A DNA stretch of 64,000 nucleotides from an uncultured Thermoanaerobaculia bacterium (GCA_964476605.1 CAYZBH010000012.1:3869-67868), one strand, 5' to 3'. Counted from the stretch's first letter, positions 1-56,816 are shown. Notes: a model not told the origin generated them from the letters alone. Program-made: numbers and translations.

Positions 1-426
1 GGGAGCGTCGGGGTGCTCGAGCTCCACGGGACGCTCTGGGTGGCGCGCTGCAACCGGTGCGGGCGGGAGCGCCCGATGCCGGAGGCGGTGGAGGAGAGCC
101 CGGAGCGGCCACCGCGCTGCGACTGCGGTGGACCCTTCCGGCCGGCGGTCGTCTGGTTCGGCGAGCGGCTGCCGGAAGAGGCGCTGAACGAGGCGGCCGA
201 GGCCGCGGCGGCGGCCGACGTCTTCTTCGCCATCGGAACCTCGGCGACCGTCTATCCGGCGGCGGGGCTGATCGAGATTACCGCCCGCCGGGGGGCCTTC
301 GTCGTCGAGGTCAATCGCGAGCCCTCCGAGCTCGCGGCGCTCGCCGACTGTTCGATCCGCGAGCCCGCTGGGGTCGCCCTGCCCCGTCTCACCGAGGAGA
401 TCCGCCGCTGGCGCTCGCGCAACTGA
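1..426 (+). CDS. cobB: NAD-dependent protein deacylase (Sir2/CobB sirtuin), C-terminal part; 5' end lies outside the window
   Basis: Reading frame open from nt 1. Zn-ribbon CxxC...CxC (CNRCGRE...CDCGG) is followed by 'VVWFGE' and 'FFAIGTSATVYPAAGL', characteristic of the sirtuin C-terminal half. Stop TGA at 424-426. Confidence 0.8.
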   Translation, partial: GSVGVLELHGTLWVARCNRCGRERPMPEAVEESPERPPRCDCGGPFRPAVVWFGERLPEEALNEAAEAAAAADVFFAIGTSATVYPAAGLIEITARRGAFVVEVNREPSELAALADCSIREPAGVALPRLTEEIRRWRSRN

Positions 427-1094
427 TCCGCGAGCTCCCCTCCGACGAGCGGCCGCGCGAGCGCCTGCTCGCCCAGGGGGCGCGCGCGTTGGGCGATGCC
501 GAGCTCCTCGCCGTGCTCCTCCGCACCGGCCGCCCGGGGGCCTCGGCGATCGACCTGGCGCGCGAGACCCTCGCTCGGGTCGGAGGGGTCCCCGGGCTCG
601 CCGAGAGCGGGGCGCCGCTGCTCCTGCGCAAGGGGCTCGGCGCGGCGAAGGCGGCGTCCATCCTGGCCGCGGTCGAGATCGGGCGGCGCCTCGCGCGCTC
701 CGAGGCCATCGACGGGACGGCGTTGGGGGCTCCCGCCGCCGTCGCCTCCTACCTCGCGCTCCGCTACCGGCTGCGCGACCAGGAGGTCCTGGGAGCGCTC
801 TACCTCGACACCCGCAACCGCCTGATCGCCGAGCGCGAGCTCTACCGGGGAACCCTCAACCGCGCCGCCGTCGAGCCGCGGGCGATCCTCAAGGAGGGGC
901 TGCTCGCGGGCGCTTCCGGGCTTATCGTCTTTCACACCCACCCGAGCGGCGACCCGGGGCCCTCGGCGGAGGACATCGCCTTCACCCGGCGCCTCGCCGA
1001 GGCGGGGGAGGTGGTCGGCATCCGGCTGGTCGACCATCTCGTGCTCGGCAGCGTCGGCCGCTGGGTCTCCTTGCGCGAGCGGGGGGCATGGTAG
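423..1094 (+). CDS. radC: RadC-family protein (JAMM/MPN+ domain, UPF0758)
   Basis: N-terminal 'ELPSDERPRERLL...AELLAVLLRTG' and C-terminal JAMM motif 'HTHPSGDPGPSAEDIAFT' are typical of RadC. No canonical ATG/GTG/TTG near the expected N-terminus; CTG at 423 is used provisionally. Overlaps the cobB stop. Confidence 0.75.
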   Translation: MIRELPSDERPRERLLAQGARALGDAELLAVLLRTGRPGASAIDLARETLARVGGVPGLAESGAPLLLRKGLGAAKAASILAAVEIGRRLARSEAIDGTALGAPAAVASYLALRYRLRDQEVLGALYLDTRNRLIAERELYRGTLNRAAVEPRAILKEGLLAGASGLIVFHTHPSGDPGPSAEDIAFTRRLAEAGEVVGIRLVDHLVLGSVGRWVSLRERGAW

Positions 1095-1104
1095 CTTCCC
1101 GCGC

Positions 1105-2355
1105 GTGCGTGGGAGCGACCTCCATCTCGACTGCTTCTCCGGCCTGGCCGGCGACATGTTTCTCGGCGCCTGCCTCGATCTCGGCATGCCGCTCACGGTG
1201 CTCGCGGAGGCGGTCGCGGCGCTCGCCCTTCCCGGAATCGCCGTCGAGGCGCGGCGCGCGCGCCGGGGGGGCTTCGCGGGCACCCGTTTTCGGGTCCTTT
1301 CGGAGGGCCAGCCGATCGAAGGCCCCGATCCCGAGGAATCTTCGGAGACCCCTCGGACCCCGCAACCTCCGCCGGAAAGCGGGCACGGCCGGCATCTGAA
1401 GGAGATTCTCGCGCTCCTCGATCGGAGCGCGCTCCCGGAAGCGGTCCGGGAGCGTTCCCGCGCGCTCTTCCACCGGCTCGGCGAGGCCGAGGCGAAGGCG
1501 CATGGCCTGCCGGTCGAACGGGTCCACTTCCACGAAGTGGGGGCGATCGATTCGATCGTCGACCTCGTCGGCGCCGCCGCGGCGATGGAGTGGCTCGCCC
1601 CGCGCCGCGTGACCTGCGGCACGGTCGCGGTGGGAAGCGGCACCATCCAGGGGGCGCACGGCGAGATGCCGGTACCGCCGCCCGCGGTCGCGGAGCTCGT
1701 CCGGGGGATCCCCGTGCGCTCGGCGCCCGGCGGGGAGCTCCTGACCCCGACCGGTGCCGCGCTCCTGGCGGAGCTGGTCGACGACTTCACGGAGCTGCCG
1801 GCGCTGGTCCTCGAGGGGGTGGGATACGGGCTCGGGCGGAAAGAGGTGGCGGGGCGCGCGAACGCCGTGCGTCTCTTCGCCGGACGACCCATCGGCGACG
1901 CGGCGACGAGCGAGGTCCTGGTCGTGGAGTGCGAAGTCGACGACCTGTCCGGCGAGGGGATCGGGCACGCGACGGCGCGCTTGCTCGAGGCGGGTGCGCT
2001 CGATGTCTACGTGACGCCCGTGCTCATGAAGAAGGGGCGCCCCGGCCACCTGGTCAGTCTGCTCGCGCGGCGGGAAGGCTTCGAAGGCCTGGCGGCTCTT
2101 CTCCTGGCGGAGACCGGCTCGCTCGGCTGCCGCTTCGTGCCCGCTGGCCGCTTCGAAGCGGAGCGCGAGACCGTCCTGGTCACGACCCCCTTCGGCGAGG
2201 TGCGCGTCAAGCGCGCGCGCTTCCGGGGGCGTCCGATCGCCGAGGCACCCGAGTCCGAAGACTGCCGGCGGCTCGCGCTCGCCGCCGGCGTGACCTGGCG
2301 CGAAGTCCACCAGGCGGCGCTCGCGGCGGCGCTCGCCACGCGTGCCGCGAGGTGA
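1105..2355 (+). CDS. larC: LarC-family nickel insertion protein (DUF111; nickel-pincer cofactor biosynthesis)
   Basis: GTG start. N-terminus 'LHLDCFSGLAGDMFLGACLDLG' and internal 'HFHEVGAIDSIVDLVGAA' match the LarC/UPF0272 family. Confidence 0.8.
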   Translation: MRGSDLHLDCFSGLAGDMFLGACLDLGMPLTVLAEAVAALALPGIAVEARRARRGGFAGTRFRVLSEGQPIEGPDPEESSETPRTPQPPPESGHGRHLKEILALLDRSALPEAVRERSRALFHRLGEAEAKAHGLPVERVHFHEVGAIDSIVDLVGAAAAMEWLAPRRVTCGTVAVGSGTIQGAHGEMPVPPPAVAELVRGIPVRSAPGGELLTPTGAALLAELVDDFTELPALVLEGVGYGLGRKEVAGRANAVRLFAGRPIGDAATSEVLVVECEVDDLSGEGIGHATARLLEAGALDVYVTPVLMKKGRPGHLVSLLARREGFEGLAALLLAETGSLGCRFVPAGRFEAERETVLVTTPFGEVRVKRARFRGRPIAEAPESEDCRRLALAAGVTWREVHQAALAAALATRAAR

Positions 2356-3263
2356 CGGGATCGCTGGCGGGTCCCGGCTTCGGCGAAGGGCGTCTCGAAT
2401 ACGGAGTCGCCGGCGAGGTCAGCCTGCGCTGGGCCGCGGTCGAGCTCGCGGGCGCGGTCGAGGAGGCACGACGGCGGCACGATCTCTCGCCGGTCGCGGC
2501 CGCCGCCCTGGGTCGCGCCATGGCGGGCGCGGTGCTCCTGCACCGGCTCTCGATCAAGGCCTCCCGCCGGCTGACCCTGACCGTGGTGGGGGACGGCCCT
2601 CTGGGAAAGGTGTTGGCCGAAGCCGACCCGGAAGGGAATGTGCGCGGCCTGGTCGGCGAGCCGCGCGTCGACCTGGCACCCGGACCCGAGGGCAAGCTGC
2701 GGGTCGGGGCGGCGGTCGGGCGGGGCACGCTGCGCGTCCGGCGCGAGCTCGTCGACGGCAGCGTCTACGAGAGCCAGGTGGAGCTCCAGACCGGCGAGAT
2801 CGGCCTCGACCTCGCGCACTTCCTGGAACAGAGCGAGCAGACGCAATCGGCGGTGATGGTCGGCGTCCTCGCGGGCCCCGAGGGAATCCGCGCCGCCGGC
2901 GGCATGATCGTCGAGGTGCTCCCGGGAGCCTCCGAAGCCGCCGTGGCCCGTCTCGAGGCCAATCTCTCGGAGTTCGGCGGGGTGAGCCGGGACCTCGACC
3001 GGGGAGGGCTCGAGGGGCTGCGCGATCACGTGCTCGCCGGCCTCGCGCCGTCGCTGATCGACGAGCGCGGCATCCGCTTCCGCTGCTCGTGCAGTCGCGA
3101 GCGCCTGCGGGAGCACCTCGTGGTGCTGCCGGGGAGCGATCTCGACGCGATACGCGACGAGGTGGGACGGGTCGAAGCCGAGTGCGCCTTCTGCGGCGAG
3201 CGCTACCTGTTCGTCCCCGCCGAGCTGCTCGCTCACGCTCCCGAAGCGGATCCCACCGGCTGA
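2352..3263 (+). CDS. hslO: Hsp33 redox-regulated chaperone
   Basis: GTG start overlapping the larC stop (GTGA). C-terminal zinc centre 'CSCSRERL...CAFCGERY' (CxC...CxxC) and overall collinearity with Hsp33. Confidence 0.8.
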   Translation: MTGSLAGPGFGEGRLEYGVAGEVSLRWAAVELAGAVEEARRRHDLSPVAAAALGRAMAGAVLLHRLSIKASRRLTLTVVGDGPLGKVLAEADPEGNVRGLVGEPRVDLAPGPEGKLRVGAAVGRGTLRVRRELVDGSVYESQVELQTGEIGLDLAHFLEQSEQTQSAVMVGVLAGPEGIRAAGGMIVEVLPGASEAAVARLEANLSEFGGVSRDLDRGGLEGLRDHVLAGLAPSLIDERGIRFRCSCSRERLREHLVVLPGSDLDAIRDEVGRVEAECAFCGERYLFVPAELLAHAPEADPTG

Positions 3264-3298
3264 TAGACTGCCGCGCGCGCCGAGCGCGCGAGGTGCGG

Positions 3299-5359
3299 AT
3301 GTCCAAGTTCTACGTCACCACTCCCATCTACTACGTCAACGACCTGCCGCACATCGGCCACATCTACACCACCGTGGTCGCGGACACGCTGGCGCGCTAC
3401 CGGCGGCTCGCGGGCGACGACGTCCGCTTCCTGACCGGAACGGACGAGCACGGGCAGAACATCGAGCGCGCCGCGGCGCGGGAGGGGATTCCGCCGCAGG
3501 CTCTCGCCGACCGGGTGGTGGCCCGCTACCACGAGCTCTGGAAGGTCTTCGGCATGACGCACGACGACTTCGTGCGCACGACGGAGCCGAGGCATCGGCG
3601 GGGAGTCGAAGAGCTCATCCGGCGGATCGACCGCGCCGGGGATTTCTACGTCGCCAAGCACGAGGGGTGGTACTGCCCGTCCTGCGAGACCTTCTACACC
3701 GAGAAGGAGCTGCTCTCCGAGCGGCGCTGTCCGACCCACGAGCGCCCGACCGAGTGGCACTCCGAGGAGAACGTCTTCTTCCGGCTCTCGAAGTACGAGC
3801 GGCCGCTTCTCGGTTGGATCGACGCCAACCCCGGCTGCATTCAGCCGGAGACGCGGCGCAACGAGGTTCGCGCCTTCGTCGCTTCGGGTCTGCGCGATCT
3901 CTCGGTGAGCCGGACCGAGCTCACCTGGGGGATTCCGTTCCCCGGCTATCCCGGCCACACCGTCTATGTCTGGCTCGATGCGCTCACCAACTACATTTCC
4001 GCGCTCGGCTTCGGCAGCGGTGAGCTTCCGATTGCCGACCCGGGCGGCGTCGGCCCGGGAGCTCGGTCGGCCCCGACGGATGCCGCCGGAGGCGCCACGA
4101 TCGACGATTCATCGTCCCTCTACCGAGCCTTCTGGGCGGGTGGGGGAAGCCGGACCCGACTCCACCTCATCGGCAAGGACATCATCCGCCACCACTGCGT
4201 CTACTGGCCGGCTTTCCTGATGTCGGCGGGGCTGCCGCTCCCGACCACGGTCTGGGCGCACGGCTGGTGGCTCCGCGACGAGAAGAAGATGTCGAAGTCG
4301 GTCGGTAACGTGGTCCGGCCGGACGAGCTCGTCGCGCGCTTCGGGCCGGACGTGCTGCGCTACTTCCTGCTGCGCGAGATGGTCTTCGGCCAGGACGCGA
4401 GCTTCTCGGACGAGGCGTTCGTCGACCGCTTCAACTCCGACCTCGCCAACGACCTCGGCAACACGGCGAGCCGACTGGTGACGATGGCGCGCCAGGCCTT
4501 CGACGGCAAGACGCCGGCGGTCCCGTGCGACGACAACCCGCTGATCCCGGTGGCGCGCGAGGTGGTGGCGGAATACCGCGCGGCGATGGAGGCGCTCGCC
4601 TTCCAGTCGGCGCTGCGCTCGCTCTGGCGGTTGCTGGCCGAGGCGAACCAGTACCTGGTGGCGCGCGAGCCCTGGAAGAAGGTCAAGACCGAAGGCCCGA
4701 GCGAGGAGCTCTCGCGGGTGCTCTGGAACGGGCTCGAAGCGGTGCGCATCGTCGCCTCGGGGTTGCTCCCCTTCATGCCGCAGATCGCGCCGAAGGTGCT
4801 CGCCGGCATCGGGGCCGGCGCGCCGCCGGCCTCTCTCGGGGCGCTCGCCTGGGGAGGGTTGCCCTGTGGCGTCGCGCTCCCCCCGCTCGCCCCGCTCTTT
4901 CCTCGCATCGACAAGGAGAAGTTCATGGCCGAGATCACCCCGCCACCGGTTCCCGCGCCGGAGGCTGTTGCAGCCACGCCGCCGGCCGGCGCGCCGGCCG
5001 CCGAGCCGAAGAGCGAGGGGACGGCGAATCTGATCGACATCGCGCACTTCGGCACCGTGGAGCTCAAGGTCGGAAAGGTGCTCTCCTGCGAGAATCTCCC
5101 GAAGTCGGAGAAGCTCCTCAAGATGATGGTGGACCTGGGGGAGGAGCGCCCGCGGCAGATCCTGGCCGGCATCGCCAAGGCCTACAGGCCGGAGGAGCTC
5201 ACGGGGACGCAGGTGGTGATCGTCGCGAACCTCAAGCCCGCGAAGCTGATGGGGCAGGAATCGCAGGGGATGGTGCTCGCCGCGACCGACGTGGAAGGGC
5301 GGCCGATCCTGCTCCGCCCGCACGCGGAGGGCGTCCCGACCGGCACGCGGGTGAAGTGA
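3299..5359 (+). CDS. metG: methionyl-tRNA synthetase with C-terminal tRNA-binding (EMAP/Trbp111-like) domain
   Basis: ATG start. 'PIYYVNDLPHIGHIYTTVVADTLARY' (HIGH motif), 'KMSKS' present, zinc knuckle 'CPSCE...CPTHE', and C-terminal 'GKVLSCENLPKSEKLLKMMVDLG' tRNA-binding domain. Confidence 0.95.
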   Translation: MSKFYVTTPIYYVNDLPHIGHIYTTVVADTLARYRRLAGDDVRFLTGTDEHGQNIERAAAREGIPPQALADRVVARYHELWKVFGMTHDDFVRTTEPRHRRGVEELIRRIDRAGDFYVAKHEGWYCPSCETFYTEKELLSERRCPTHERPTEWHSEENVFFRLSKYERPLLGWIDANPGCIQPETRRNEVRAFVASGLRDLSVSRTELTWGIPFPGYPGHTVYVWLDALTNYISALGFGSGELPIADPGGVGPGARSAPTDAAGGATIDDSSSLYRAFWAGGGSRTRLHLIGKDIIRHHCVYWPAFLMSAGLPLPTTVWAHGWWLRDEKKMSKSVGNVVRPDELVARFGPDVLRYFLLREMVFGQDASFSDEAFVDRFNSDLANDLGNTASRLVTMARQAFDGKTPAVPCDDNPLIPVAREVVAEYRAAMEALAFQSALRSLWRLLAEANQYLVAREPWKKVKTEGPSEELSRVLWNGLEAVRIVASGLLPFMPQIAPKVLAGIGAGAPPASLGALAWGGLPCGVALPPLAPLFPRIDKEKFMAEITPPPVPAPEAVAATPPAGAPAAEPKSEGTANLIDIAHFGTVELKVGKVLSCENLPKSEKLLKMMVDLGEERPRQILAGIAKAYRPEELTGTQVVIVANLKPAKLMGQESQGMVLAATDVEGRPILLRPHAEGVPTGTRVK

Positions 5360-22860: not shown

Positions 22861-24009
22861 ATGCCGGTGGATTTCTCCTTCACCGAGGAACAGGAGCTGC
22901 TCCGCCAGGAGGTCCGCCGCTTCGCCGAGGAGCGGATTCGCCCCGGCCTGCGCGAACGCGACCGTGAGCATCGCTTTCCGGCGGACATTCTCCGCGAGAT
23001 GGGCGAGATGGGGCTGCTCGGAATGCTCGTGCCCGAGGAGCTCGGAGGCGCCGGCCAGTCGCCGCTGACCTATTGCCTCGCGGTCGAGGAGGTCGCCAGC
23101 GTCTGCCCGTCCACCGCCGTCTCGATGAGCGTCACCAACTCGGTCTGCCAGTGGCCGATCGTCCAGTTCGGAACGCCCGCGCTCCAGCGGCGGGTGCTGC
23201 CGGAGCTCGCCTCGGGAGAGGCACTGGGGGGGTTCGGGCTCACGGAGCCGGAGTCGGGGAGTGATGCCGGGGGGATGACGTCGCGGGCGCACCGCGACGG
23301 CTCCGACTGGGTGCTCGACGGACAGAAGGCCTGGATCACCCACGCCGGCGTCGGGAAGTGGTTCGTTGCCTTCGCCAAGACGGACCCGGACGCCGGCAAG
23401 CGAGGGATCTCCGCCTTCGTCATTTCGGCGGAGTGGCCCGGGTTCCGGCGCGGAAGCGCCGAGGAGAAGCTCGGCTTGCGCGCCTCGGACACCGGGGCGC
23501 TCTATTTCGAATCGCTCCGCGTGCCGGGGGAGTTCCTGCTGGGCGAGGAGGGGCAGGGTTTCCACATCGCCCTGGCGACGCTCGACCACTCCCGTCTCGG
23601 CATCGCCGCGCAGGCCGTGGGCATGCATCGGCGCGCGCTCGAGCTCGCGCTCGAGTACGCCAAGGAGCGGCGACAGTTCGGCGTGCCGCTCGCCGAGCAC
23701 CAGGCGATCCGGTTCACCCTGGCCCGGATGGCGACCGAGCTCGCCGCCGCGCGCGCCCTGCTGCACCAAGCCGCGCTGGTGTCCGGCCGGCGTTCGGAGG
23801 CGGGGCGGCTCGCGTCCGAGGCCAAGGCCTTCGCCTCCGAGGCCGCCAACCGCGCCTGCTGGGACGCGTTGCAGGTCCACGGTGGGAACGGCTTCTGCGA
23901 GGACTACGAGATCGCCCGCCTCTACCGCGACGTTCGCGTGACGACGATTTACGAAGGCACGAGCGAGATGCAGCGCCTGGTGATCGCGCGCCACCTGCTC
24001 GCGTCGTGA
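22861..24009 (+). CDS. acyl-CoA dehydrogenase (second paralogue)
   Basis: 382 aa. 'GFGLTEPESGSDAGG', 'HGGNGFCEDYEIARLYRDVRVTTIYEGTSEMQ'. Confidence 0.9.
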   Translation: MPVDFSFTEEQELLRQEVRRFAEERIRPGLRERDREHRFPADILREMGEMGLLGMLVPEELGGAGQSPLTYCLAVEEVASVCPSTAVSMSVTNSVCQWPIVQFGTPALQRRVLPELASGEALGGFGLTEPESGSDAGGMTSRAHRDGSDWVLDGQKAWITHAGVGKWFVAFAKTDPDAGKRGISAFVISAEWPGFRRGSAEEKLGLRASDTGALYFESLRVPGEFLLGEEGQGFHIALATLDHSRLGIAAQAVGMHRRALELALEYAKERRQFGVPLAEHQAIRFTLARMATELAAARALLHQAALVSGRRSEAGRLASEAKAFASEAANRACWDALQVHGGNGFCEDYEIARLYRDVRVTTIYEGTSEMQRLVIARHLLAS

Positions 24010-24956
24010 GCGCCTCCGGCTCGACCGGCGGCTCCGGCCGCGTCCTCGGGATCGTCCTCAACTTCGACGGCCGCGACCTCACGCTGGCGACGCTCGAAAG
24101 CCTGCTCGCCATGCGCCATCCGGCGCTCGATCTCCTGGTGGTCGACAACGGTTCGTCCGACGGCTCGGACGCGGCGGTGGCGGAGCATTATCCGGGCGTC
24201 CGGCGCCTCCGCACCGAGCGGAACCTCGGGATCTCCGGAGGGCTCAACCTCGGATTCCGGGTCGGCCTCGAGGCGGGTTACGACTACCTGATGCCGATGA
24301 ACAACGACATCGAGGTGGCGCCCGATCTCCTGGACGCGCTGATCGCCGCGATCGAGACCGATCCGAAGCTCGGCTGCGTCGGGCCGAAGTGCTACTACCA
24401 CAGCGACCCGCGGCGGATCTGGTCCGCCGGGGGGATCCTGCGGTTCCGAGAGTCGGTCACCCGCGAGCGGGGCATGGGGGAGCTCGACCGGGGTCAGTAC
24501 GACCTGGACGGGGTCGTGGACTACGTGAACGGCGCGCTCATGCTCGCGCGGCGCGATGCGATGCTCGCCGCCGGGCTCTGGGATCCCGTCTACCACGTGT
24601 CCGTCGAGGACGCCGATTGGTGCATGCGCGCCCGGCGCGCGGGCTTCCGCTGCGGCTACGCGTATCGCGCCCGCCTCTGGCACATGGTCTCGCCGACGAC
24701 CGGCGGGTATGTCGCCGGCAGGACGTTTCGAACCGGTCGCTCGACCGCGATCTTCGTCCGCAAGTACGCAGGTCCACTGGGCTGGCTCTCCTTTCTCGCC
24801 TGGTCGGCGCTCGCCCTCCCCGCGGCCCTGGCGCGCGAGCTGCCACGCGGCAACGCGGGGGCGGTCCTCGCCAAGTACCGAGGGTTGGCCGAAGGGCTCA
24901 GGGTCCCCTTGCCCCCGCCTCCCGGGGCGGGACCCGGCAGCGAGAACCCGCTCTAG
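24006..24956 (+). CDS. glycosyltransferase family 2
   Basis: GTG start overlapping the ACAD stop (GTGA). 'LGIVLNFDGRDLTLATLESL...VVDNGSSDGS' nucleotide-sugar binding region and DxD-like 'NNDIEV'. Confidence 0.8.
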   Translation: MSASGSTGGSGRVLGIVLNFDGRDLTLATLESLLAMRHPALDLLVVDNGSSDGSDAAVAEHYPGVRRLRTERNLGISGGLNLGFRVGLEAGYDYLMPMNNDIEVAPDLLDALIAAIETDPKLGCVGPKCYYHSDPRRIWSAGGILRFRESVTRERGMGELDRGQYDLDGVVDYVNGALMLARRDAMLAAGLWDPVYHVSVEDADWCMRARRAGFRCGYAYRARLWHMVSPTTGGYVAGRTFRTGRSTAIFVRKYAGPLGWLSFLAWSALALPAALARELPRGNAGAVLAKYRGLAEGLRVPLPPPPGAGPGSENPL

Positions 24957-24965
24957 ACTCGGGCC

Positions 24966-25613
24966 ATGACGGCCCAGCCGCCTGATCTCGCGGAGCTTCG
25001 CGAGGCGATCGTCGCCGGCGATGGTGGCCGGGCGCGGGAGCTCGCGCGCCTCCACCTCGCGGCGGAGGGGGATCCCGTCGCCGCGGTCGAGCTCGGATTC
25101 GGAGCGGGGCTGAGGCGGGTCGGCGAGCTCTGGGAGAGCGGCGACTATTTCCTGCCGGAGCTGGTCCAGGGGGCCGAAGCGATGAAGAGCGCCATGGCGG
25201 AGCTCTTGCCGGCGCTCGCCGCGCGGGCGGGAGGTGTGACCTGCCGCGGCCGGGTGGTGCTCGGAACCGTGCGCGGGGACCTGCACGACATCGGCAAGAG
25301 CCTGGTCGGCGTCCTGCTCGCGGCGCACGGCTTCGAGATCCACGACCTCGGCGTCGACGTCCCCGCGGAGGCGTTCGTCGCCAGGGCGCGCGAGGTCGGC
25401 GCGGAGATCGTCGCCGCCTCGGCGCTGCTCACGACGACGATGGTGGGACAGCGGAGCCTCGCCGAAGCGCTCCGCGCCGCGGCGCTTCCGAGCCGGCCGC
25501 GGCTCCTGGTCGGCGGCGCGCCGACCACCCCGCGCTGGGCGGAGGAGATCGGCGCCCACCATGCCGAGAACGCGCTGCGCGCCGTCGACGTCGCGGCGCG
25601 ACTGGTTTCCTGA
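24966..25613 (+). CDS. cobalamin-binding corrinoid protein (MtbC/MtgC/MetH-B12-domain type: B12-binding_2 cap + Rossmann B12 domain)
   Basis: DxHxxG motif 'GDLHDIGKS', 'SALLTTTM' and 'LVGGAP' motifs. 215 aa. Confidence 0.85.
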   Translation: MTAQPPDLAELREAIVAGDGGRARELARLHLAAEGDPVAAVELGFGAGLRRVGELWESGDYFLPELVQGAEAMKSAMAELLPALAARAGGVTCRGRVVLGTVRGDLHDIGKSLVGVLLAAHGFEIHDLGVDVPAEAFVARAREVGAEIVAASALLTTTMVGQRSLAEALRAAALPSRPRLLVGGAPTTPRWAEEIGAHHAENALRAVDVAARLVS

Positions 25614-26491
25614 TGTCCTTCTCGAATCGCCTCGCCCGTGGCCCCTGCCTGCTGTGGGACGGCGGGATGGGCACCCTGCTGATGGCGCGGGGACTGGCGG
25701 CGGGCGAAGCCCCCGAGCGCTGGAATCTCGAGCGCCCAGAGGAGGTCCGTGCCGCGCACGCCGATTACGTCGCCGCGGGCTGTGACGTGGTGCAGACCAA
25801 CACCTTCGGCGCCCACCCGCTCCGTCTGGAGCGCTTCGGATTCGCGGAGCGCTGCGAGGAGATCGCAACGCGCGCCACGGCGCTCGCACGAAGTGCGGCT
25901 GGCACGTTCGTCGTCGGGGACCTGGGACCCGTGGGGGAGCTCCTACCTCCGGTCGGAACCGGAGACCCGGTGCGCTTCCGCGCGGGCTATCTCCGGCTCG
26001 CCCGGGCGCTCGCGGAGGCCGGATGCGATGCCCTCCACGTCGAAACGCAAAGCGATCTCGCCGAGGCCCGGATCGCCCTCTCCGCGGCGCTCGAGGCCGC
26101 TCCTGGGCTCCCCGTCCTGGTCTCGCTCGCGTTCGAGCGGCGGCCACGCGGCTTCTTCACGGTGATGGGGAATCCGCTGCTCGCATCGCTCGACGAGCTC
26201 GCGCGCCGGGGCGCCTCGGCGGTGGGGGCGAACTGCTCGCTCGCGAGCGGCGACATGGCGGTGCTCGGGCGCGAGCTGCTCGCTGGCACGGGCGCGCGGA
26301 CGCTCTTCCAGCCGAACGCGGGGCGTCCCGAGCCCCGTGCCCGAGGCTTCGTTTACACGCAGGAACCACGCGAGTTCGCGGCCGACCTCGCGCCCCTCGC
26401 GGAGGCCGGCGCAGCGGCGCTCGGCGGCTGCTGCGGCACCGATCCCCGGTTTCTCCGGGCGCTCCGCGACCTGCTCGACGAGGGCCCGTGA
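25613..26491 (+). CDS. homocysteine S-methyltransferase domain protein (PF02574; MetH N-terminal Hcy-binding barrel type)
   Basis: ATG overlapping the preceding stop (TGATG). 'CDVVQTNTF', 'VGANCSLASG' and 'LGGCCGT' supply the Cys, CysCys zinc ligand pattern of MetH/BHMT homocysteine-binding domains. Confidence 0.8.
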   Translation: MSFSNRLARGPCLLWDGGMGTLLMARGLAAGEAPERWNLERPEEVRAAHADYVAAGCDVVQTNTFGAHPLRLERFGFAERCEEIATRATALARSAAGTFVVGDLGPVGELLPPVGTGDPVRFRAGYLRLARALAEAGCDALHVETQSDLAEARIALSAALEAAPGLPVLVSLAFERRPRGFFTVMGNPLLASLDELARRGASAVGANCSLASGDMAVLGRELLAGTGARTLFQPNAGRPEPRARGFVYTQEPREFAADLAPLAEAGAAALGGCCGTDPRFLRALRDLLDEGP

Positions 26492-27168
26492 AGGGGACCC
26501 TGCGCCTCGAAGTCGCAGTCCGGGAAGACGACGTACTGCACTTCCTCGGCTACCGCGGCGGACGTCGTCCGTCGGCGTCGCTCGCCGGGCGCCTCGAGGA
26601 GGCCGTGGGCGAGGCCCGCGAACTCGCCTCCCCGCGCGGCGCCTGGCGTCCGCTGGCCGTCGAGGAGGCGGGGGAGCTCGGTCTCGAGGAGATCCCGGCC
26701 GCGGGCTTGGTGATCGGACTGGTGACGATCGGCTCGGCGATCGAGGAGCTGTCGAGCGAGCGCCTGCGGGAGGGCGATGCGGCGGGTGCGCTGTTTCTCG
26801 ACGCCGCCGGGAGCGCGGCGGTGGAAGAGGCGGCCGACCGGCTCGGAGCCGCGATCGTCCGCGAGCTCGCTCCGCCGAAAAGCAGGGGCGAAGCACCGTT
26901 TCCAGCCGAGAGCCCGCACGGTCCCGTCTCCTGCCGGATCAGCCCCGGATACGGCACCTGGCTGCTCGCCGGACAGCGCGCTCTCTTCGAGCGCCTCCCG
27001 GCGCGGGCGCTCGGAATCCGATTGGAGAGCTCGCTGCTCATGGTGCCGAGGAAGACGATCTCGTTCGCGATGTGGCTGGGGGCGGACGCCAAGCCGGTCG
27101 CGGGGCTCGCGGGCTGCGCGCGGTGCGCGCTCGCGTCCTGTCGCTACCGGCGGGAACCCGGGGCCTAG
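26488..27168 (+). CDS. MetH-like AdoMet-dependent reactivation (activation) domain protein (PF02965-like), stand-alone
   Basis: GTG start overlapping the preceding stop (GTGA). 'SPGYGTW...LFERL' and 'LESSLLMVPRKTISFAMW' resemble the conserved 'PGY' and 'LTESFAMWP..SVSG' motifs of the MetH C-terminal domain. Assignment from memory of the family, not a search. Confidence 0.55.
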   Translation: MKGTLRLEVAVREDDVLHFLGYRGGRRPSASLAGRLEEAVGEARELASPRGAWRPLAVEEAGELGLEEIPAAGLVIGLVTIGSAIEELSSERLREGDAAGALFLDAAGSAAVEEAADRLGAAIVRELAPPKSRGEAPFPAESPHGPVSCRISPGYGTWLLAGQRALFERLPARALGIRLESSLLMVPRKTISFAMWLGADAKPVAGLAGCARCALASCRYRREPGA

Positions 27169-27172
27169 CGCG

Positions 27173-28621
27173 ATGGTTCGCTGCGCGCTCTTCGACGCGA
27201 CCGAGGTCGCCGCCCTCGTCGACGAGGCCCGCGCGGTGCTCGCGCGCGTCGGATTCGGGGTGGAGAACGCCGCGGGGGCCGAGCTCCTCTCCGCCGCAGG
27301 CGTGCCGCGGCGAGCGGGACGGTTCCATCCCGACGGCGCCACGCTGGAGAGGGCGCTCGCGAGCGCGCCACGCCGCTTCGTCCTCTTCAGCCGTTCCGGC
27401 GAGCCGGCGCTTCGCTTCGGGGAAGGTCTGGTTCAGTTCGACCCGGGATCGGCCGCCGTCTACCGGCTGGACGGGGAGCGGGAGGAGCGACGCCTGGCAC
27501 GCGCGGCGGACCTGGTGGATCTCGCGCGCCTCGTGGAGGATCTCCCGGCCTACGCGGCGCAGTCCACGGCACTCGTCGCGAGCGATGTCCCGGGCAGCCT
27601 CTCCGACAGCTACCGACTCTGGGTCGCGCTCGCCTTCGGCCGCAAGCCGGTGGTGACGGGGACCTTCTCGAAGGAGTCGTTCGCGGTCATGCGCGACATG
27701 CTGGTGGCGGTGCGGGGGGACGAGGGGAGGCTGCGCGCCCAGCCGCTCGCCCTCTTCGATTGCTGTCCGACCTCCCCGCTCACCTGGACGGACCTCACGG
27801 CCCAGGCCCTCGTCGACTGCGCGCGCGCCGGAATCCCCGCGCAGATCGTGCCGGTGCCCCTCACCGGCGCGACGTCGCCCGTCACCCTGCGGGAGACGGT
27901 CGTGCAGCACGTCGCCGAGAGCCTCTCCGGTCTGTTGATCCACCAGCTGGCGTCTCCCGGAGCACCCGTGGTCCTCGGCGGCGCCCCCGCCGCGTTCGAC
28001 ATGCGCCTGGGGACGGCCGTCATGTCCGCGCCGGAGAGTCTCCTCTTGCAGGTTGGATTCGCGCAGGTGGCGCGTCACCTCGGGATCCCCTGTCACGGCT
28101 ACCTCGCTCTCTCGGATGCGAAGCGCCCCGACTACCAGGCGGGCATGGAGAGCGCCGCCGGGGCCGTGATGGGAGCCCTCGCGGGCTTCGATCTCATCTC
28201 CGGCCCGGGGCTCCTCGATTTCCTCCTCACTCAATCCTTCGAGAAGCTCCTGCTGGACCACGACGCCTGCCTGCTCGCGCTCCGCCTCGTCCGGGGCATC
28301 GAAGCGCGCGGCGGCGACGCCATCGAGCTCATCGGGGCGGCGGTCGCGAACGGCCAGATGCTCGGCCACCCGCACACGCGTCGCCATTACCGCGAGGAGC
28401 TCGCGACCCTCTCCCGGCTCGTCGATCGGTCGACCTACGGAGACTGGGAGGCGGCAGGTTCCCGGGACGCCGCGTCGCGTGCCCGCGCGGAGGTCGCGCG
28501 AAAGCTCGCAGTGGAGCCCGCGGGCGAGCTCGGGGGAGGTGTCCGCGAGGATCTCGATCGCGTGCTGGCCGCGGCGGCGCGCGCGCGGGGAGTCGAGCTG
28601 CCGGCCCTCGCCGGGGTGTAG
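27173..28621 (+). CDS. MttB-superfamily methyltransferase (trimethylamine/glycine-betaine:corrinoid methyltransferase family), non-pyrrolysine member
   Basis: 482 aa uninterrupted ORF with no internal amber codon. '[12 protein letters not shown]...[15 protein letters not shown]...[14 protein letters not shown]...[13 protein letters not shown]...[16 protein letters not shown]' is collinear with MttB/MtgB TIM-barrel proteins. Confidence 0.85.
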
Positions 28622-28704
28622 CCCGGGAGACCGAGCGACGCGCATCGGGGTGCTACACTCCGAGCCCCGACTGGCGCGCCGTTTCGTCCCAGGAGATCGA
28701 CCTC

Positions 28705-30432
<1,728 letters not shown>

Positions 30433-30437: not shown

Positions 30438-30935
30438 ATGGCCGACACCGTCTCCACACTACGCGGACTCCTCGCCTACACGATGTGGGCCGATCGGGCC
30501 GTTCTCGAGGCGCTCAAGGGGGTCAGCCCCGAGGACGCGATGCGCGAGACGGGGAGCAGCTTCGGTTCGGTCCTCGGCACCATGGCGCATATCCTCGGCG
30601 CGGAGCAGCTCTGGCTCTCGCGCCTGCTGGGCATCCCCTTGACGCACCTGCCGAGTCGCGACGACTTCCCGACCGTGGAGCTCCTCGCCGCGAGCTTCGA
30701 GGACTTCTGGCCGCAGCTCGAGTTCTTCCTCGCCACGTTGTCGGGCGATCAAGTCGATGCCGACTTCGCGTGGACGAACTTGCGGGGCGAGGCGCGCTCC
30801 GCGCCGCTCCGGCAGGTGCTCCTCCACGTGGTGAATCACTCGACCTACCATCGGGGGCAAGTCGTCTCCCAGTTGCGCCAGCTCGGCTATTCGCCGCCCT
30901 CGACCGATCTCGTGGAGTACCGTGGCGCCGTCTAG
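30438..30935 (+). CDS. DinB/YfiT-like (DUF664) four-helix-bundle metal-binding protein
   Basis: 165 aa. 'LLAYTMWADRAVLEAL' and 'HVVNHSTYHRGQV' His motifs typical of the DinB_2 family. Confidence 0.75.
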   Translation: MADTVSTLRGLLAYTMWADRAVLEALKGVSPEDAMRETGSSFGSVLGTMAHILGAEQLWLSRLLGIPLTHLPSRDDFPTVELLAASFEDFWPQLEFFLATLSGDQVDADFAWTNLRGEARSAPLRQVLLHVVNHSTYHRGQVVSQLRQLGYSPPSTDLVEYRGAV

Positions 30936-32835
30936 CGACGCCCTGGCAGCTCGCGGAGAACGATCGTCCCGATCGCCGACCTGGCTGGCGCACTTGGCGT
31001 TCTGCTCGGGGCTCGTCTTGGCGCTCTCTTCCGGGTGCATGCGGGAAGAGGGCGCCAGGCCCAGCGAACGGTTGATCGAGCACGGCGAGGTGACGACTGC
31101 GTCGCTCGGGGACGGGGAGCACCCCGAGGTGCCCGAGTCCTGGCTGGCGGACGTCGCGATGGTTGCTCCGCCAAATCGTGTCGTGAGCCTGGCCCGACGC
31201 CGGCTGCCGGACGGCGATGGCTACGACCAGCGCGCCTCGATCGCGGCCCCCGCAGGGAGCCGCTACGTCTTCGACCTCGACCTGCCGAAGCGCCCGACGC
31301 TCCGGCTCGCCTGGGCGGCCGGCGCCCCGGAGGGGCGCGAGGGAGAGTCGTGGAGCCTCGCGTTTCGCGCCGCCGTGGAATCGGACGGAGGCTCCCCGGT
31401 GGAGGTGTCGCAGGGGACGGTCACGTCGCGCGACAGGCTGGCGGGGTGGAACGAGGCGACCGTCTCCCTCGGACGATGGGCCGGGCGTCACGTCAGGCTG
31501 GCGCTTGAGACCTCGGGTGACCCGTTGCCCTGGGGTGCCTGGGCGAATCCGATCGTCGACGCAGGACCGAGCGCGCGGCCCAATCTCATCCTGATCAGCG
31601 TCGACACCGTGCGCGCGGATCACCTCGGTGCGTACGGCTATAGGCGCCGTCCGACGACCCCGCGGCTCGACCGCTTCGCGGCCGACAACATCCGGTTCGC
31701 ATGGGCGATCGCGCAGGCGCCGTGGACACAGCCTTCCCATCAGGCGATGCTCTCGGGAATCTATCCGGCCTCCCGAGGCGAGCTCGAAAGGGTCTATCTC
31801 GCGCGCGTCCTCTGGCACGCGGGGTATCGCACGCTCGCGCTGACCGGCGGTGGTCAGGTGGACGTGCGCTTCGGGTTCGACCGTGGATTCGAGGCCTTCC
31901 GGCTCTCCGACTGGATCCATGCGCCGGAGGAGACGGTGCGCTGGACCGCGAGCCGAACCTCCGGCCCGTTCTTTCTCTTCCTTCACACCTACGAAGTCCA
32001 CGAGCCCTACACGCACGACGAATTCGCGCGCGCCATGCCGCCGGGACGTCTCGGGACGACCTTCAGCAAGGACCTCTGGCAGCACATGGGAAAGGTCTTC
32101 ACCGAAGAAGAGATGGCCTACATCGAGGCGCTCTACGACGGTGACCTGCGGTACACCGACGAGAAGTTGGGGCAGTGGTTCGAAGCAGCGGCCCGGGCGG
32201 GCTGGCTGGACAACTCGATCATCGTGGTGACGAGCGACCATGGCGAGCAGTTCTGGGAGCACGCGACCTGGGGGCATGGACAGAGCCTGCACGATCACCA
32301 GCTGCACGTTCCGCTGCTCGTCCATCTGCCCCCGTCGGTGCGCGCCCGCCTCGGCGCTCGTGCGCTCGCACCGGGCTCGGTGGTCGCGGACCAAGTGCAA
32401 CTGATCGACCTCTATCCGACGCTGCTGGAGCTGCTGCAGATTCCCGCCGAGAGCCGCGTCCAGGGGACCTCCGTCGTGCCGCTGCTCGCCGGCGAGGCGA
32501 TGGCGCCGCGCGAGGCCTTCGCCGAGCGGACGAACGTTCGCGCCTACGAGTCGAAGGCCCTGCGGACGCTGCGCTACAAGTTCATCTACTCCTTTCCCAG
32601 GCGCGAGACCGCGCTCGACCGGCCGCCCCTGGAGCTCTTCGACTTGAGGCGCGACCCGGGCGAGCAGACCAACCTCGCCGCCCTGCAGCCGGACGTGGTC
32701 GCGGGCCTGAAGGAGCGTGTTCTCGCCATCTCGGCCGGCGGCGATCTCGCCGGGGATTCCGACGAGAATCCGCCGCTCGACGCCGACCTGGCCGCCAAGC
32801 TCCGGGCCCTGGGCTATCTGGACAACGGGCGATGA
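30922..32835 (+). CDS. sulfatase-like hydrolase/transferase (alkaline-phosphatase superfamily), predicted lipoprotein
   Basis: GTG start. Lipobox 'LVLALSSGC'. Catalytic-core 'LILISVDTVRADHLGAYGY' and 'VVTSDHGEQFWEHATWGHG'. Lacks the C/S-x-P-x-R formylglycine motif and has Thr at the nucleophile position, so it is a phosphotransferase-like branch rather than a true arylsulfatase. Confidence 0.8.
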   Translation: MAPSSDALAARGERSSRSPTWLAHLAFCSGLVLALSSGCMREEGARPSERLIEHGEVTTASLGDGEHPEVPESWLADVAMVAPPNRVVSLARRRLPDGDGYDQRASIAAPAGSRYVFDLDLPKRPTLRLAWAAGAPEGREGESWSLAFRAAVESDGGSPVEVSQGTVTSRDRLAGWNEATVSLGRWAGRHVRLALETSGDPLPWGAWANPIVDAGPSARPNLILISVDTVRADHLGAYGYRRRPTTPRLDRFAADNIRFAWAIAQAPWTQPSHQAMLSGIYPASRGELERVYLARVLWHAGYRTLALTGGGQVDVRFGFDRGFEAFRLSDWIHAPEETVRWTASRTSGPFFLFLHTYEVHEPYTHDEFARAMPPGRLGTTFSKDLWQHMGKVFTEEEMAYIEALYDGDLRYTDEKLGQWFEAAARAGWLDNSIIVVTSDHGEQFWEHATWGHGQSLHDHQLHVPLLVHLPPSVRARLGARALAPGSVVADQVQLIDLYPTLLELLQIPAESRVQGTSVVPLLAGEAMAPREAFAERTNVRAYESKALRTLRYKFIYSFPRRETALDRPPLELFDLRRDPGEQTNLAALQPDVVAGLKERVLAISAGGDLAGDSDENPPLDADLAAKLRALGYLDNGR

Positions 32836-32874: not shown

Positions 32875-33273
32875 ATGAGCGCCAAGGGCATGCGGGTGTT
32901 GATCGCCAAGCCGGGGCTCGACGGGCACGATCGAGGAGCCAAAGTCGTGGCGCGCGCGCTGCGTGATGCCGGCTACGAGGTCATTTACAGCGGGCTGCGG
33001 CAGACGCCGGAACAGATCGCGGCGGCGGCGGTCCAGGAGGACGTGGACGCGGTCGGCCTGTCGATCCTCTCCGGAGCGCACAACCGTCTCCTTCCGGAAG
33101 TGACGCGGCTGCTGCGGGAGGCGGGGGCCGACGATGTCTTGGTGTTCGCAGGCGGCATCATCCCGGATCGGGACATCGCCGGCCTCAGGAGCGCGGGCAT
33201 CGACCAGGTCTTCCTGCCGGGAACGTCGACCGGGGACATCGTCAAGTACCTCGAGACCCGCTTGGACGGCTGA
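32875..33273 (+). CDS. methylmalonyl-CoA mutase B12-binding small subunit
   Basis: 132 aa. '[23 protein letters not shown]' (DxHxxG), '[13 protein letters not shown]', 'VFAGGIIP'. Confidence 0.85.
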
Positions 33274-51104: not shown

Positions 51105-51815
51105 TCAGCGCGCGGGCTGGTCGTAGAAGGCGAGCTCCTCGAGGGGAACCCGCAAGTCGACGTTCTTGACACGACAGCCTGCCACGGCGGGGAGGACGAC
51201 CGGCGCGAAGTTCAGCACCGCCCGTACACCCGCTTCCGCGAGCAGAGCGTAGCCCGCTCGGGCCGAGCTCGCGGGAACGGCGAGGATGGCCATGGTGGCG
51301 CTCGTCTCTCGCACGACCCGTGGCACCTCCTGCGGCGCGAAGACCGGGATCGGAGAGCTCGCCGAGCCGATCTTGGCCGGATCGCGATCGAAGCCGGCGA
51401 CGACCTGGAAGCTGCCGCCGTTGAAGGCGGGGAACCGTGCGAGAGCGGTGCCGAGATTCCCCATGCCGTAGATGACGACGTTGTGCACGCGGTCGAGCTG
51501 CAACACGCGCGCGAGCTGCTGCTCGAGGCGGGGCACGTCATACCCGACTCCGCGGACGCCGAACTCGCCGAACTGGGCGAGGTCCTTGCGGACCTGGGCT
51601 GCGGAGAGGTTGCAGATCCGCGAGAGATGTTCGGAGGAGACTCGCGAGACGCCTTCGCCCGTGAGCTGCCGCAACGAGCGCAGATAGAGAGAAACGCGGT
51701 TGACCGTCAGATGAGAGACCGATCCCCGCGAGGCGTCGGCGAGACGCAGCTCCTGAGCTCGCGGGCTGCCGATGTCCTTCTCCGGCCGGGAGAGCCGCGC
51801 CCGGGTCCGGCTCAA
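51105..51815 (-). CDS. rex: redox-sensing transcriptional repressor Rex
   Basis: 'NRVSLYLRSLRQLTGEGVSRVSSEHLSRICNLSAAQVRKDLAQFGEFGVRGVGYDV' winged helix plus Rossmann 'VVIYGMGNLGTALA'. TTG start at 51815 overlaps the nuoN stop (TTGA). The N-terminal extent is uncertain because there is no ATG/GTG. Confidence 0.8.
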   Translation of the reverse strand: MSRTRARLSRPEKDIGSPRAQELRLADASRGSVSHLTVNRVSLYLRSLRQLTGEGVSRVSSEHLSRICNLSAAQVRKDLAQFGEFGVRGVGYDVPRLEQQLARVLQLDRVHNVVIYGMGNLGTALARFPAFNGGSFQVVAGFDRDPAKIGSASSPIPVFAPQEVPRVVRETSATMAILAVPASSARAGYALLAEAGVRAVLNFAPVVLPAVAGCRVKNVDLRVPLEELAFYDQPAR

Positions 51816-53260
51816 GGCGCGCTGACTGCCTGCTGTATCCAGCCCAGGAACGGGCCGGGAAGCACGCCGAGCAGCAGGGTGGCGCCGGCGGCGACGACCG
51901 CTGCGAGACCACCGGCCCAATCGAGCGCCAGGCCCGAAGGCGCGGTCACCTCTTCGCGCATGTAGAGCATGTAGACGACGCGCAAGTAGAAGACGATGCC
52001 GATCAGGCTCGCGACGACGCCGGTCAGGGCGAGCGCCAGGTTCCCGTGCTGCACCGCGTGCAGAAAGACGAGGTACTTGCCGAGGAAGCCGAGAGTCGGG
52101 GGGATGCCCCCCAGGGAGAGCATGCAGATCGTCAGGCAGGCGGCGGCGACCGGGAAGCGGAAGCCCCAACCCGAGAGCGTGACGATCTGGTGGGGCTCAC
52201 CCGGCTTGGCGTAGAGCATCGAAACGAGAACGAAGGCGCCTCCGTTCATGAGGGCATAGGAGAACAGGTAGACGAGGAGCGGGCGCCAGGATTCCGGACC
52301 GGGTGAGGCCAGGGGAATGAGGAGATAGCCCATGTGGGCGATGCCGGAGTAGGCCAGCATCCGCTTGATGTCCCGCTGCACGAGGGCGAAGAGATTCCCG
52401 GCGAGCATCGAGGCGACCGCGAGGAGCGAGACGAGGGCCCGCCAGTCTCCGGCCGTGGGGGCGCCCGAGGCGAGAGTCACCAGACGGGCGAGGACGACGG
52501 CACTCGCCACTTTGGGAGCGACGGACAGGAAGGCGACGAAGGGCGACGGTGCCCCCTGATAGACGTCGGGCGCCCAGGCGTGGAACGGCACGAGCCCGAG
52601 CTTGAATCCGAACCCGCAGACGAGCATGAGCAGCCCGAGCAGGACGAGGCCCGGAGACCCTGCCCCCTTGCCGAGGGACTCGGCGACCAAGGCGAGACGG
52701 GTGGATCCGGTCTCTCCGTAGACGAGCGCGGTGCCGTAGAGAATGAACGAGCTGACGAGCGCTCCCATGAGGAAGTACTTGATGGCGGCTTCCGCCGAGA
52801 GCGCTTCGCGCCGATGGTACGCGGCAAGTCCGTAGAGCCCGACGGAGAGCAGCTCGAGAGCGACGAAGATCGACAGCAGCTCGGTGCCGCGAACCAGCAG
52901 GAGCAGGCCCGCCGCGCACCAGAGCAGAAGCGCCGGATACTCGCCGGAGAGGAGTCGCTCCCGTGTCAGGTAGCCCTGGGCGGCGAGAAGTCCGAGGCCG
53001 GTCGCGAGGAGGATCGCCTGCGAGAACGCGCCCGTGATGCCGGAGGACTCGATCAGCCCCCCGAAGAAGGAGCCCGGCGGCTGAGCGGCGACTTGGCTCG
53101 CGGCGTAGACGACAGCGGCGAGCGAGAGCAGGAGGAAGGAGCGCCGCAGGCGCGGCGTGAAGGCCTCGAGCAGCAGCACGAGCGAGCCGGCGGCCGTCAG
53201 GACGATCTCGGGCCGGAGCGCGGCCCAGCTCGCGGAGGTTCCGATCAGGAGCTCGTTCAT
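51812..53260 (-). CDS. nuoN: NADH-quinone oxidoreductase subunit N
   Basis: 482 aa polytopic antiporter-like subunit. 'KLGLVPFHAWAPDVYQGAPSP'. Confidence 0.9.
   Translation of the reverse strand: MNELLIGTSASWAALRPEIVLTAAGSLVLLLEAFTPRLRRSFLLLSLAAVVYAASQVAAQPPGSFFGGLIESSGITGAFSQAILLATGLGLLAAQGYLTRERLLSGEYPALLLWCAAGLLLLVRGTELLSIFVALELLSVGLYGLAAYHRREALSAEAAIKYFLMGALVSSFILYGTALVYGETGSTRLALVAESLGKGAGSPGLVLLGLLMLVCGFGFKLGLVPFHAWAPDVYQGAPSPFVAFLSVAPKVASAVVLARLVTLASGAPTAGDWRALVSLLAVASMLAGNLFALVQRDIKRMLAYSGIAHMGYLLIPLASPGPESWRPLLVYLFSYALMNGGAFVLVSMLYAKPGEPHQIVTLSGWGFRFPVAAACLTICMLSLGGIPPTLGFLGKYLVFLHAVQHGNLALALTGVVASLIGIVFYLRVVYMLYMREEVTAPSGLALDWAGGLAAVVAAGATLLLGVLPGPFLGWIQQAVSAP

Positions 53261-54878: not shown

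Positions 54879-54879
<1 letters not shown>
53257..54879 (-). CDS. nuoM: NADH-quinone oxidoreductase subunit M
   Basis: ATG at 54879 overlapping the nuoL stop. 'IKVPMFPLHTWLPDAHVEAPTGGSVILAGILLKLGTYG'. The upstream 108 codons of the track ORF are rejected. Confidence 0.9.

Positions 54880-56816
<1,937 letters not shown>

Follow-up and report, generated by a model that had tools for sequence, protein, structure and literature searches.

How could a methyl group reach homocysteine, and so yield methionine, through a corrinoid protein that has no folate-binding partner beside it? This question is raised by four adjacent genes, here termed g1 to g4, in a stretch of 64,000 nucleotides from an uncultured Thermoanaerobaculia bacterium (the window, by which the whole analyzed stretch is meant). 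They encode a corrinoid protein, a homocysteine-binding methyltransferase module, a stand-alone protein resembling the S-adenosylmethionine (AdoMet)-binding activation domain of MetH (the methionine synthase that depends on cobalamin), and a member of the MttB superfamily, in which methylated amines are the usual methyl donors. On balance, the four proteins probably make up a corrinoid-dependent homocysteine methyltransferase of four components, in other words a split methionine synthase whose methyl group comes from an N-methyl donor other than folate. The observations on which this is based are the identities of the domains, their catalytic motifs, the strict conservation of the operon, the lack of a folate module nearby and the interchange, in related gene clusters, of the activation protein with an ATP-dependent activase of the RACo type.

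Gene organization and domain identities

The four open reading frames (ORFs) lie on the plus strand within positions 24966–28621 (Table 1), and direct reading of the sequence confirmed both the coordinates and the junctions first reported for them. The stop codon of g1 (TGA, 25611–25613) and the start codon of g2 (ATG, 25613–25615) share one base (TGATG, 25611–25615), the start codon of g3 (GTG, 26488–26490) overlaps the stop codon of g2 (TGA, 26489–26491) in a run of four nucleotides (GTGA, 26488–26491), and the stop codon of g3 (TAG, 27166–27168) is separated by a gap of four nucleotides (cgcg) from the start codon of g4 (ATG, 27173). The four genes are translationally coupled. Two short public contigs carry called proteins that are identical to these, starts included, and third-position G+C is high in each gene, as expected for real genes. 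Long antisense and overlapping ORFs in 23949–28645 were rejected as shadow ORFs of this region of 73% G+C.

Table 1. Genes of the four-component module, with positions counted from the first nucleotide of the window.
Gene	Position	Strand	Length (amino acids)	Product and features
g1	24966–25613	+	215	Corrinoid (B12-binding) protein; cap domain and Rossmann domain
g2	25613–26491	+	292	Stand-alone homocysteine-binding methyltransferase module; Zn ligands C208/C273/C274 and E144
g3	26488–27168	+	226	Stand-alone MetH-type activation (AdoMet-binding) protein; GTG start
g4	27173–28621	+	482	Non-pyrrolysine MttB-superfamily TIM-barrel methyltransferase; presumed methyl donor:corrinoid methyltransferase

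The assignments made for three of the proteins in the original prediction, which was drawn from the sequence alone, are well supported. The B12-binding protein g1 matches PF02607 (1.9e-18) and PF02310 (1.9e-22), and its His-on motif D105-L-H107-D-I-G110 (DxHxxG), together with S152-x-L154 and G183-G184, is near-invariant across 44 orthologues. Its best NCBIfam matches are to the MtgC-type (193 bits) and methylamine-type (168 bits) corrinoid proteins, with the B12 region of MetH at 125 bits, all of these scores being under the family-specific cut-offs. The g2 protein matches PF02574 (1.3e-54), and the Cys..CysCys zinc ligands claimed for it align with the GxNCSL and GGCCGT motifs of Thermotoga maritima MetH and are invariant in 55 orthologues. 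Its closest solved relative is the homocysteine domain of the T. maritima enzyme (3e-40), which is far nearer than either human betaine-homocysteine methyltransferase (BHMT, 3.5e-12) or human homocysteine S-methyltransferase (HMT, 7.8e-12), and this fits the uptake of a methyl group from a corrinoid. The placement of g4 in the MttB superfamily holds equally well, with a match to PF06253 at 5.4e-74 and no other Pfam match at E ≤ 0.01, and, as its gene is free of in-frame stop codons, it belongs to the non-pyrrolysine members.

Conservation of the module

Conservation of the gene cluster was assessed in two surveys. In the first, which was based on g3, one genome per species was scanned and the loci were then searched by tblastn with the four proteins. 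All of the approximately 48 loci with a g3 relative of at least 41% identity have the module, and its order is g1-g2-g3-g4 wherever the contig is complete. The loci come from metagenome-assembled genomes (MAGs) labelled Thermoanaerobaculia/Acidobacteriota, Gemmatimonadota, Myxococcota, Bacteroidota, Acidithiobacillales and Pseudomonadota, some of which labels look unreliable. Their flanks differ completely, and when all neighboring ORFs of these loci were clustered in a search for clues to the substrate or the electron donor, no other family was found in more than five. The second survey, an independent scan of metagenome contigs based on g4, gave 80 loci, and every g4 relative of at least 49% identity that has sequence upstream adjoins g3, and also g2 and g1 where the contig extends far enough.

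Folate-related partners and an ATP-dependent activase were sought at the same loci by tblastn with three pterin-domain queries, a RACo activase and an MTHFR domain. None was found in the 64-kb window, at 47 of the 48 loci with the module or at the 80 loci from metagenomes. Thus no separate pterin-binding methyltransferase lies within 6–10 kb at the approximately 128 loci around the g4 clade, and the single pterin domain found near a module belongs to a canonical MetH, at locus L025. Given the strict gene order, the unrelated flanks and the lack of a folate module nearby, the module is a conserved, self-contained operon with no folate-binding partner in its vicinity. The architecture originally proposed, that of MetH minus its pterin-binding domain and with an MttB-type methyltransferase in its place, therefore holds on the domain assignments and the operon conservation, and also on the context of distant g3 homologues that is described below.

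The activation protein and its interchange with RACo

For g3 the evidence is divided. The original prediction regarded it as a MetH reactivation domain and named PF02965 as the family that it should match, which, taken literally, it does not, because the match (E = 0.013, 15.3 bits) misses the gathering score of 25. The assignment itself is nevertheless favored by several other comparisons. Some close g3 orthologues have precomputed PF02965 matches, a phmmer search with g3 finds the stand-alone activation protein TM0269 of T. maritima (PDB 1J6R) at 8.3e-7, and a profile of 30 g3-family sequences finds 1J6R at 2e-9 and matches the human and Thermus MetH activation domains weakly. In the PDB, the 19 closest Foldseek matches to the AlphaFold model of g3 (pLDDT 84.5, pTM 0.84) are without exception MetH activation domains (8e-10 to 7.5e-5), with TM0269 among them at 8.3e-10 (TM 0.64/0.73), and the match that follows is at E = 0.68. 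The motifs noted at the outset, R150-I-S-P-G154-Y155 and LMVPRKxISFAMW, are present and conserved among 44–55 orthologues, the first being near-invariant and having the form RxxxGY (R150-x-x-x-G154-Y155), which is the AdoMet-binding motif of MetH.

The context of more distant homologues points in the same direction. In Bacillota, g3 homologues of 27–35% identity are encoded just upstream of a short MetH, in which tblastn located the homocysteine, pterin and B12 parts, and this is the same arrangement as that of TM0268 and TM0269 in T. maritima, where TM0269 has been shown experimentally to be a required partner for the reactivation of MetH (Huang et al., 2007, as cited in PMC7857596). By sequence, profile, predicted fold and the context of its distant homologues, g3 is a predicted MetH-type activation domain.

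A role for g3 in reactivation is also supported by its interchange with RACo in sister clades. At 41–48% identity to g4 related architectures appear, and in six of them (L119, L126, L128, L136, L150 and L159) a RACo-type ATP-dependent activase precedes g2, g1 and g4 in place of g3, the MttB proteins of these clusters being approximately 46% identical to g4. The content of one such cluster, L136, was confirmed with Pfam as an APC permease, a RACo with all of its domains, PF02574, a corrinoid protein and PF06253. Other variants combine RACo with g1 and g4, in some cases together with a g3-like gene, or consist of g1-g3-g4 lacking g2 or of g4 alone, and one locus (L151) has both the RACo activase and the g3-type activation protein. 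The order g1-g3-g4 is seen in L113, L120, L123, L132, L139, L143 and L146, and g1-g4-g3 in L112, L121 and L141; neither type has a homocysteine module within 6 kb, and both carry a tail-less activation-like protein, which scores above the PF02965 cut-off in L132. At a further locus, from a Pseudomonadota MAG (L055:1900–15300), a g3-like activation protein with a cysteine tail is encoded together with a RACo activase, four MttB paralogues, two corrinoid proteins and two pterin-binding methyltransferases, and a homocysteine module is lacking. Activation proteins of the MetH type therefore also occur in classical MttB/tetrahydrofolate systems.

The tail in question is the C-terminal part of g3, and it contains three of four conserved cysteines (C210-x2-C213-x4-C218), the fourth being C149 within S-C-R-x-S-P-G-Y. 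Two of the four, C210 and C213, do not vary, and the other two, C149 and C218, are each found in 46 of 47 orthologues, whereas TM0269 has no such tail and has Phe at the position of C149. Confidence in the tail is low in the AlphaFold model, as could be expected of a metal site built in the absence of its metal, and the cysteine spacing resembles that of the [4Fe-4S] motif of CoFeSP. The cysteines may bind a metal or an iron sulfur center that feeds electrons into reactivation. The tail is not unique to the module, as a similar Cx2Cx4-6C tail is present in many of the Bacillota stand-alone activation proteins that adjoin a short MetH. Among the loci in which g4 is accompanied by a complete g3 ORF, the tail occurs in the absence of RACo at 68, RACo in the absence of the tail at three, both together at one and neither at 14. 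Tail-less g3 proteins are found in g1-g3-g4 clusters without g2 or in RACo clusters, with the exception of L104, L149, L049 and L051, in the last two of which the g3 match is cut short.

The methyl donor

Among solved structures g4 is matched by MttB (7XCL, 2e-46), MtgB (9YCE/2QNE, ∼6e-39) and a homologue from Sinorhizobium meliloti (4YYC, 4e-35), and it is about equally distant from all three, so that these relationships point to no particular donor. Pyl334 of MttB aligns with L313 of g4 and Tyr364 of MttB with S343, and the NCBIfam family trimeth_pyl scores 280 against a cut-off of 525. A true trimethylamine methyltransferase was therefore rejected, as g4 has neither the pyrrolysine nor Tyr364.

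The original prediction favored a betaine-like donor, and this part of it did not hold up. In MtgB, glycine betaine is contacted by Y97, F356, R312 and H348 (PMC13080624). In the order Y97, R312, H348 and F356 these residues align with S93, H308, S343 and L351 of g4. Three of the four contacts are replaced by residues that are invariant or nearly so within the clade, S93 and S343 being invariant in 40 orthologues and H308 being present in 37 of the 40, while position 351 varies (L/E/I). An MtgB-type betaine enzyme was therefore rejected and, as the MtgB signature is not kept, a betaine-like donor is not supported. The g4 clade has instead its own invariant residues in the region of the pocket, namely F89-x-P-G-S-A-A95, Y310, S314-D-x-K317, S343 and D349, with F or Y at position 350.

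Permeases of the APC family of amino-acid and organocation transporters, of two types, adjoin the module or its variants in 15 of about 150 loci (L028, L030, L039, L042, L047, L119, L124, L128, L129, L134, L136, L142 and L160, together with two weak matches in L031 and L083). Eight of the 15 are in RACo-type or other sister-clade loci. The permeases are a weak hint that the donor is an imported amino-acid-like compound or organocation.

Relation to known systems

The combination of genes was thought at first to be undescribed, but it is already in the literature. Williams et al. (2022, Environ Microbiol 24:2576; PMC9324843) reported the same four-component cluster in Ca. Electryoneota and its occurrence in diverse bacteria, and they hypothesized a novel corrinoid-dependent methyl transfer for methionine synthesis, with the methyl donor unspecified. 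As far as the published description allows them to be likened, that cluster has the same four components side by side as the window module and has prompted the same hypothesis, and its MttB homologue is nearer to MttB than to MtgB, which matches the PDB scores of g4. They differ in that the window lineage is Thermoanaerobaculia-like, and the paper contains no conservation statistics, active-site analysis or experiments. By its gene content, the window module is a further member of the described cluster type, in a lineage that is Thermoanaerobaculia-like as judged by synteny with L006 and L008.

A related system has since been established by experiment. Genetic analysis of Ruegeria by Mausz et al. 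(2025; PMC12478193) showed that the MttB-family protein MtgB, the corrinoid protein MtgC, the pterin protein MtgD and the homocysteine module MtgE are interlinked, with MtgB, MtgC and MtgE arranged around one corrinoid protein and reactivation predicted to proceed via RamA and DUF1638 proteins, and a 2025 preprint extends this MtgBCDE system to Phaeobacter. Like the window module, the MtgBCDE systems of Ruegeria pomeroyi, Phaeobacter inhibens and Sinorhizobium meliloti (with the split MetH of Price et al., as cited in PMC12478193) combine an MttB-family protein with a separate corrinoid protein and a separate PF02574 protein, and so link N-methyl demethylation with methionine synthesis. In contrast to the module, they need the pterin-binding MtgD, and their genes are often dispersed, with mtgE usually unlinked. 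In the module all four genes are coupled, the glycine-betaine residues of MtgB are not kept, and neither MtgD nor RamA or RACo was found in the 64 kb, where an AdoMet-dependent activation protein of the MetH type is predicted instead; neither DUF1638 nor RamA was matched among the window ORFs scanned with Pfam, although no search was aimed at DUF1638.

With MetH itself the operon shares a homocysteine module with Zn(Cys)3, a B12 module with the DxHxxG motif and an activation fold with the RxxxGY motif. It differs in lacking PF00809, both in the Pfam matches of the four proteins and in a tblastn search of the 64-kb window, in having all of its parts as separate polypeptides, and in its g1, which is closer to the methylamine-type corrinoid proteins than to the B12 domain of MetH. 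A separate activation part is also found in T. maritima (TM0268/TM0269) and in many Bacillota, but g3 has the cysteine-rich C-terminal tail that TM0269 lacks, and it lies between a homocysteine module and an MttB homologue rather than beside a short MetH. Finally, as in the MtgB/MtgC/MtgA system of Desulfitobacterium hafniense and the MtcB, MtpB, MtyB and MthB systems of Eubacterium limosum, a non-pyrrolysine MttB-superfamily methyltransferase would load its cognate corrinoid protein. In those systems the methyl group goes to tetrahydrofolate (coenzyme M in methanogens) and reactivation is of the RamA type and ATP-dependent, whereas the module is predicted to have a homocysteine-specific acceptor and a MetH-type reactivation.

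Proposed mechanism and alternatives

The mechanism set out here is one that we infer, and this applies to the donor, to the direction in which the methyl group flows, to the source of the electrons, to the physiological role and to any role of the cysteines. The g4 protein would bind an N-methylated donor, probably not in the manner in which MtgB binds glycine betaine, and would transfer one methyl group to the Co(I) form of g1. Homocysteine would be activated on the Zn(Cys)3 site of g2, which would take the methyl group from methyl-Co(III)-g1 to generate methionine. When g1 becomes oxidized to the Co(II) form it would be restored by g3 through AdoMet-dependent reductive methylation, with electrons from a donor, and a metal or iron sulfur center bound by the four conserved cysteines of g3 may help in this. 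In a more far-reaching version, the cysteine-tailed g3 would be a self-contained reactivase with its own iron sulfur electron delivery and would functionally replace both flavodoxin docking and RACo/RamA. Together with an MttB homologue whose donor is not betaine, it would give uncultured bacteria of soils and sediments a widespread means of making methionine with B12 and without folate. This version we regard as decidedly unlikely.

Several points weigh against a methionine synthase with a non-folate donor. Besides the PF02965 score of g3, they include the outcome of full-text literature searches, which found no experimental work on the four-gene cluster, and that of the neighbor survey of approximately 150 loci, which found no consistently linked transporter or regulator that would name the donor; the APC-family permeases adjoin in only 15 of these. 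As the search covered the window and the related loci, a pterin-binding partner may be encoded elsewhere in the genome. In addition, a canonical MetH accompanies the module both at L025 and in published MAGs (PMC9324843), so that the module is not needed there for folate-dependent methionine synthesis.

The L025 locus (1–5355, minus strand), from a Thermoanaerobaculia MAG, is informative in two ways. Divergently upstream of its module are the canonical MetH (PF02574 and PF00809, cut by the locus end) and a fusion of a homocysteine methyltransferase with MTHFR, and this layout links the module to methionine metabolism. It also means that in this genome the module does not stand in for MetH and, as a canonical MetH is also present in the Ace Lake genomes (PMC9324843), the replacement of MetH implied by the original prediction is doubtful. 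When the L025 MetH fragment was compared with a protein database, the best 120 matches were all of at least 66% identity, and none of these 120 came from the module-bearing long contigs (4.52, 3.82 and 0.96 Mb, and others).

The first alternative is a dual system of the MtgBCDE type built around a shared corrinoid protein. Here g4 and g2 would be alternative partners of g1, which would serve both the demethylation catalyzed by g4, with the methyl group passing mainly to tetrahydrofolate via a distant MtgD- or MtgA-like protein, and a split methionine synthase made up of the distant MtgD, g1 and g2. There is a precedent in R. pomeroyi, where such a system with dispersed genes is supported by genetics and proteomics (PMC12478193), and the L055 locus, with its MttB paralogues, corrinoid proteins, pterin-binding methyltransferases, RACo and g3-like protein but no homocysteine module, is also in its favor. 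However, the approximately 128 loci of the g4 clade have no separate pterin-binding methyltransferase within 6–10 kb, and the only methyl-acceptor module linked to that clade is the homocysteine module, whose gene is translationally coupled to its neighbors. We consider such a dual system unlikely.

A catabolic role is the second alternative, and as its chemistry is the same it overlaps with the split methionine synthase. The module would mainly demethylate an imported methylated amine with homocysteine and methionine as the methyl sink and would be, in effect, a B12-dependent analogue of BHMT that does not supply methionine for growth. The coexistence of the module with canonical MetH, at L025 and in the published MAGs (PMC9324843), and the adjoining permeases, eight of whose 15 loci are RACo-type or other sister-clade ones, are in keeping with such a role. 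What makes it improbable is that no genes for further demethylation or one-carbon oxidation lie downstream, that there is no regulator, that the operon lies among housekeeping genes (nusA, infB, pnp, valS, dnaE, nuo) and that bulk catabolism would be ill served by the removal of a single methyl group for each methionine formed. The third alternative, a non-homologous replacement of the folate domain in which g4 binds 5-methyltetrahydrofolate or another methylated pterin to give an ordinary folate-dependent split MetH, would suit the self-contained, housekeeping-like context with no transporters and the fact that MttB, like the folate domain of MetH, is a TIM barrel by which a methyl group is presented to a corrinoid (PMC9842639), but it is highly improbable given that all characterized members of the MttB superfamily use methylamines or quaternary amines (PMC13080624), that a canonical MetH with its own pterin domain adjoins the module in L025 and that PF06253 is the sole Pfam match of g4 at E ≤ 0.01.

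Genomic context of the window

The rest of the window, which has a G+C content of approximately 70%, is ordinary chromosome. Directly upstream of the module are genes for two acyl-CoA dehydrogenases and a GT2 glycosyltransferase. Elsewhere there are radC, a larC-like gene, NIF3, pnp, truB, infB, nusA and genes for a DegP-like protease and a sigma-54 response regulator, as well as valS, a biotin ligase gene, a comEC-like gene, dnaE and the nuo operon, and no metH, metE or betaine transporter was found in the window. A scan of 21–34 kb for promoters and terminators gave nothing informative, and the four genes may belong to a longer unit on the same strand. No S-adenosylmethionine (SAM), S-adenosylhomocysteine (SAH) or cobalamin riboswitch was matched when the window and four related loci were scanned with Rfam.

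Directly downstream of the module are a gene for the catalytic subunit of methylmalonyl-CoA mutase (28705–30432) and one for its separate B12-binding subunit (32875–33273), the two being separated by a DinB-like ORF and a sulfatase gene (30922–32835). This second B12-dependent enzyme near the module is also found in L006 and L008 and is not conserved elsewhere. Two further features lie elsewhere in the window. A LarC-like nickel-insertion protein (1105–2355; PF01969, 4.9e-125), which has no connection with the module, is encoded next to the radC-like gene. The AT skew is strongly positive (0.22–0.29) at 52000–58000, coinciding with minus-strand genes for nuoL/M/N-like membrane subunits (51812–56816) of a complex I operon that reaches to approximately 62570, and is probably an effect of the codon composition of hydrophobic proteins.

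Significance

The interpretation originally given to this locus is plausible and is strengthened by the present analysis, yet it had already been published as a hypothesis. The idea was published in 2022 as a side remark. The value of the present work is not a new concept but a well-defined and conserved four-gene target for reconstitution. What is added here is the breadth and strictness of the conservation of the operon, the lack of folate modules around the whole g4 clade, the alternation of the activation protein with RACo, the finding that the betaine residues are not kept, and the cysteine tail of g3. The gene clusters also constitute a natural experiment in modularity, in which the same triad of homocysteine module, corrinoid protein and MttB homologue is combined either with a MetH-type, AdoMet-dependent reactivation or with the ATP-dependent RACo. 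If the proposed function is correct, many uncultured Acidobacteriota, Gemmatimonadota, Myxococcota and others would make methionine from a methylated amine without folate, and N-methyl compounds in the environment would be coupled directly to the methionine and AdoMet pool, adding to the known demand for cobalamin.

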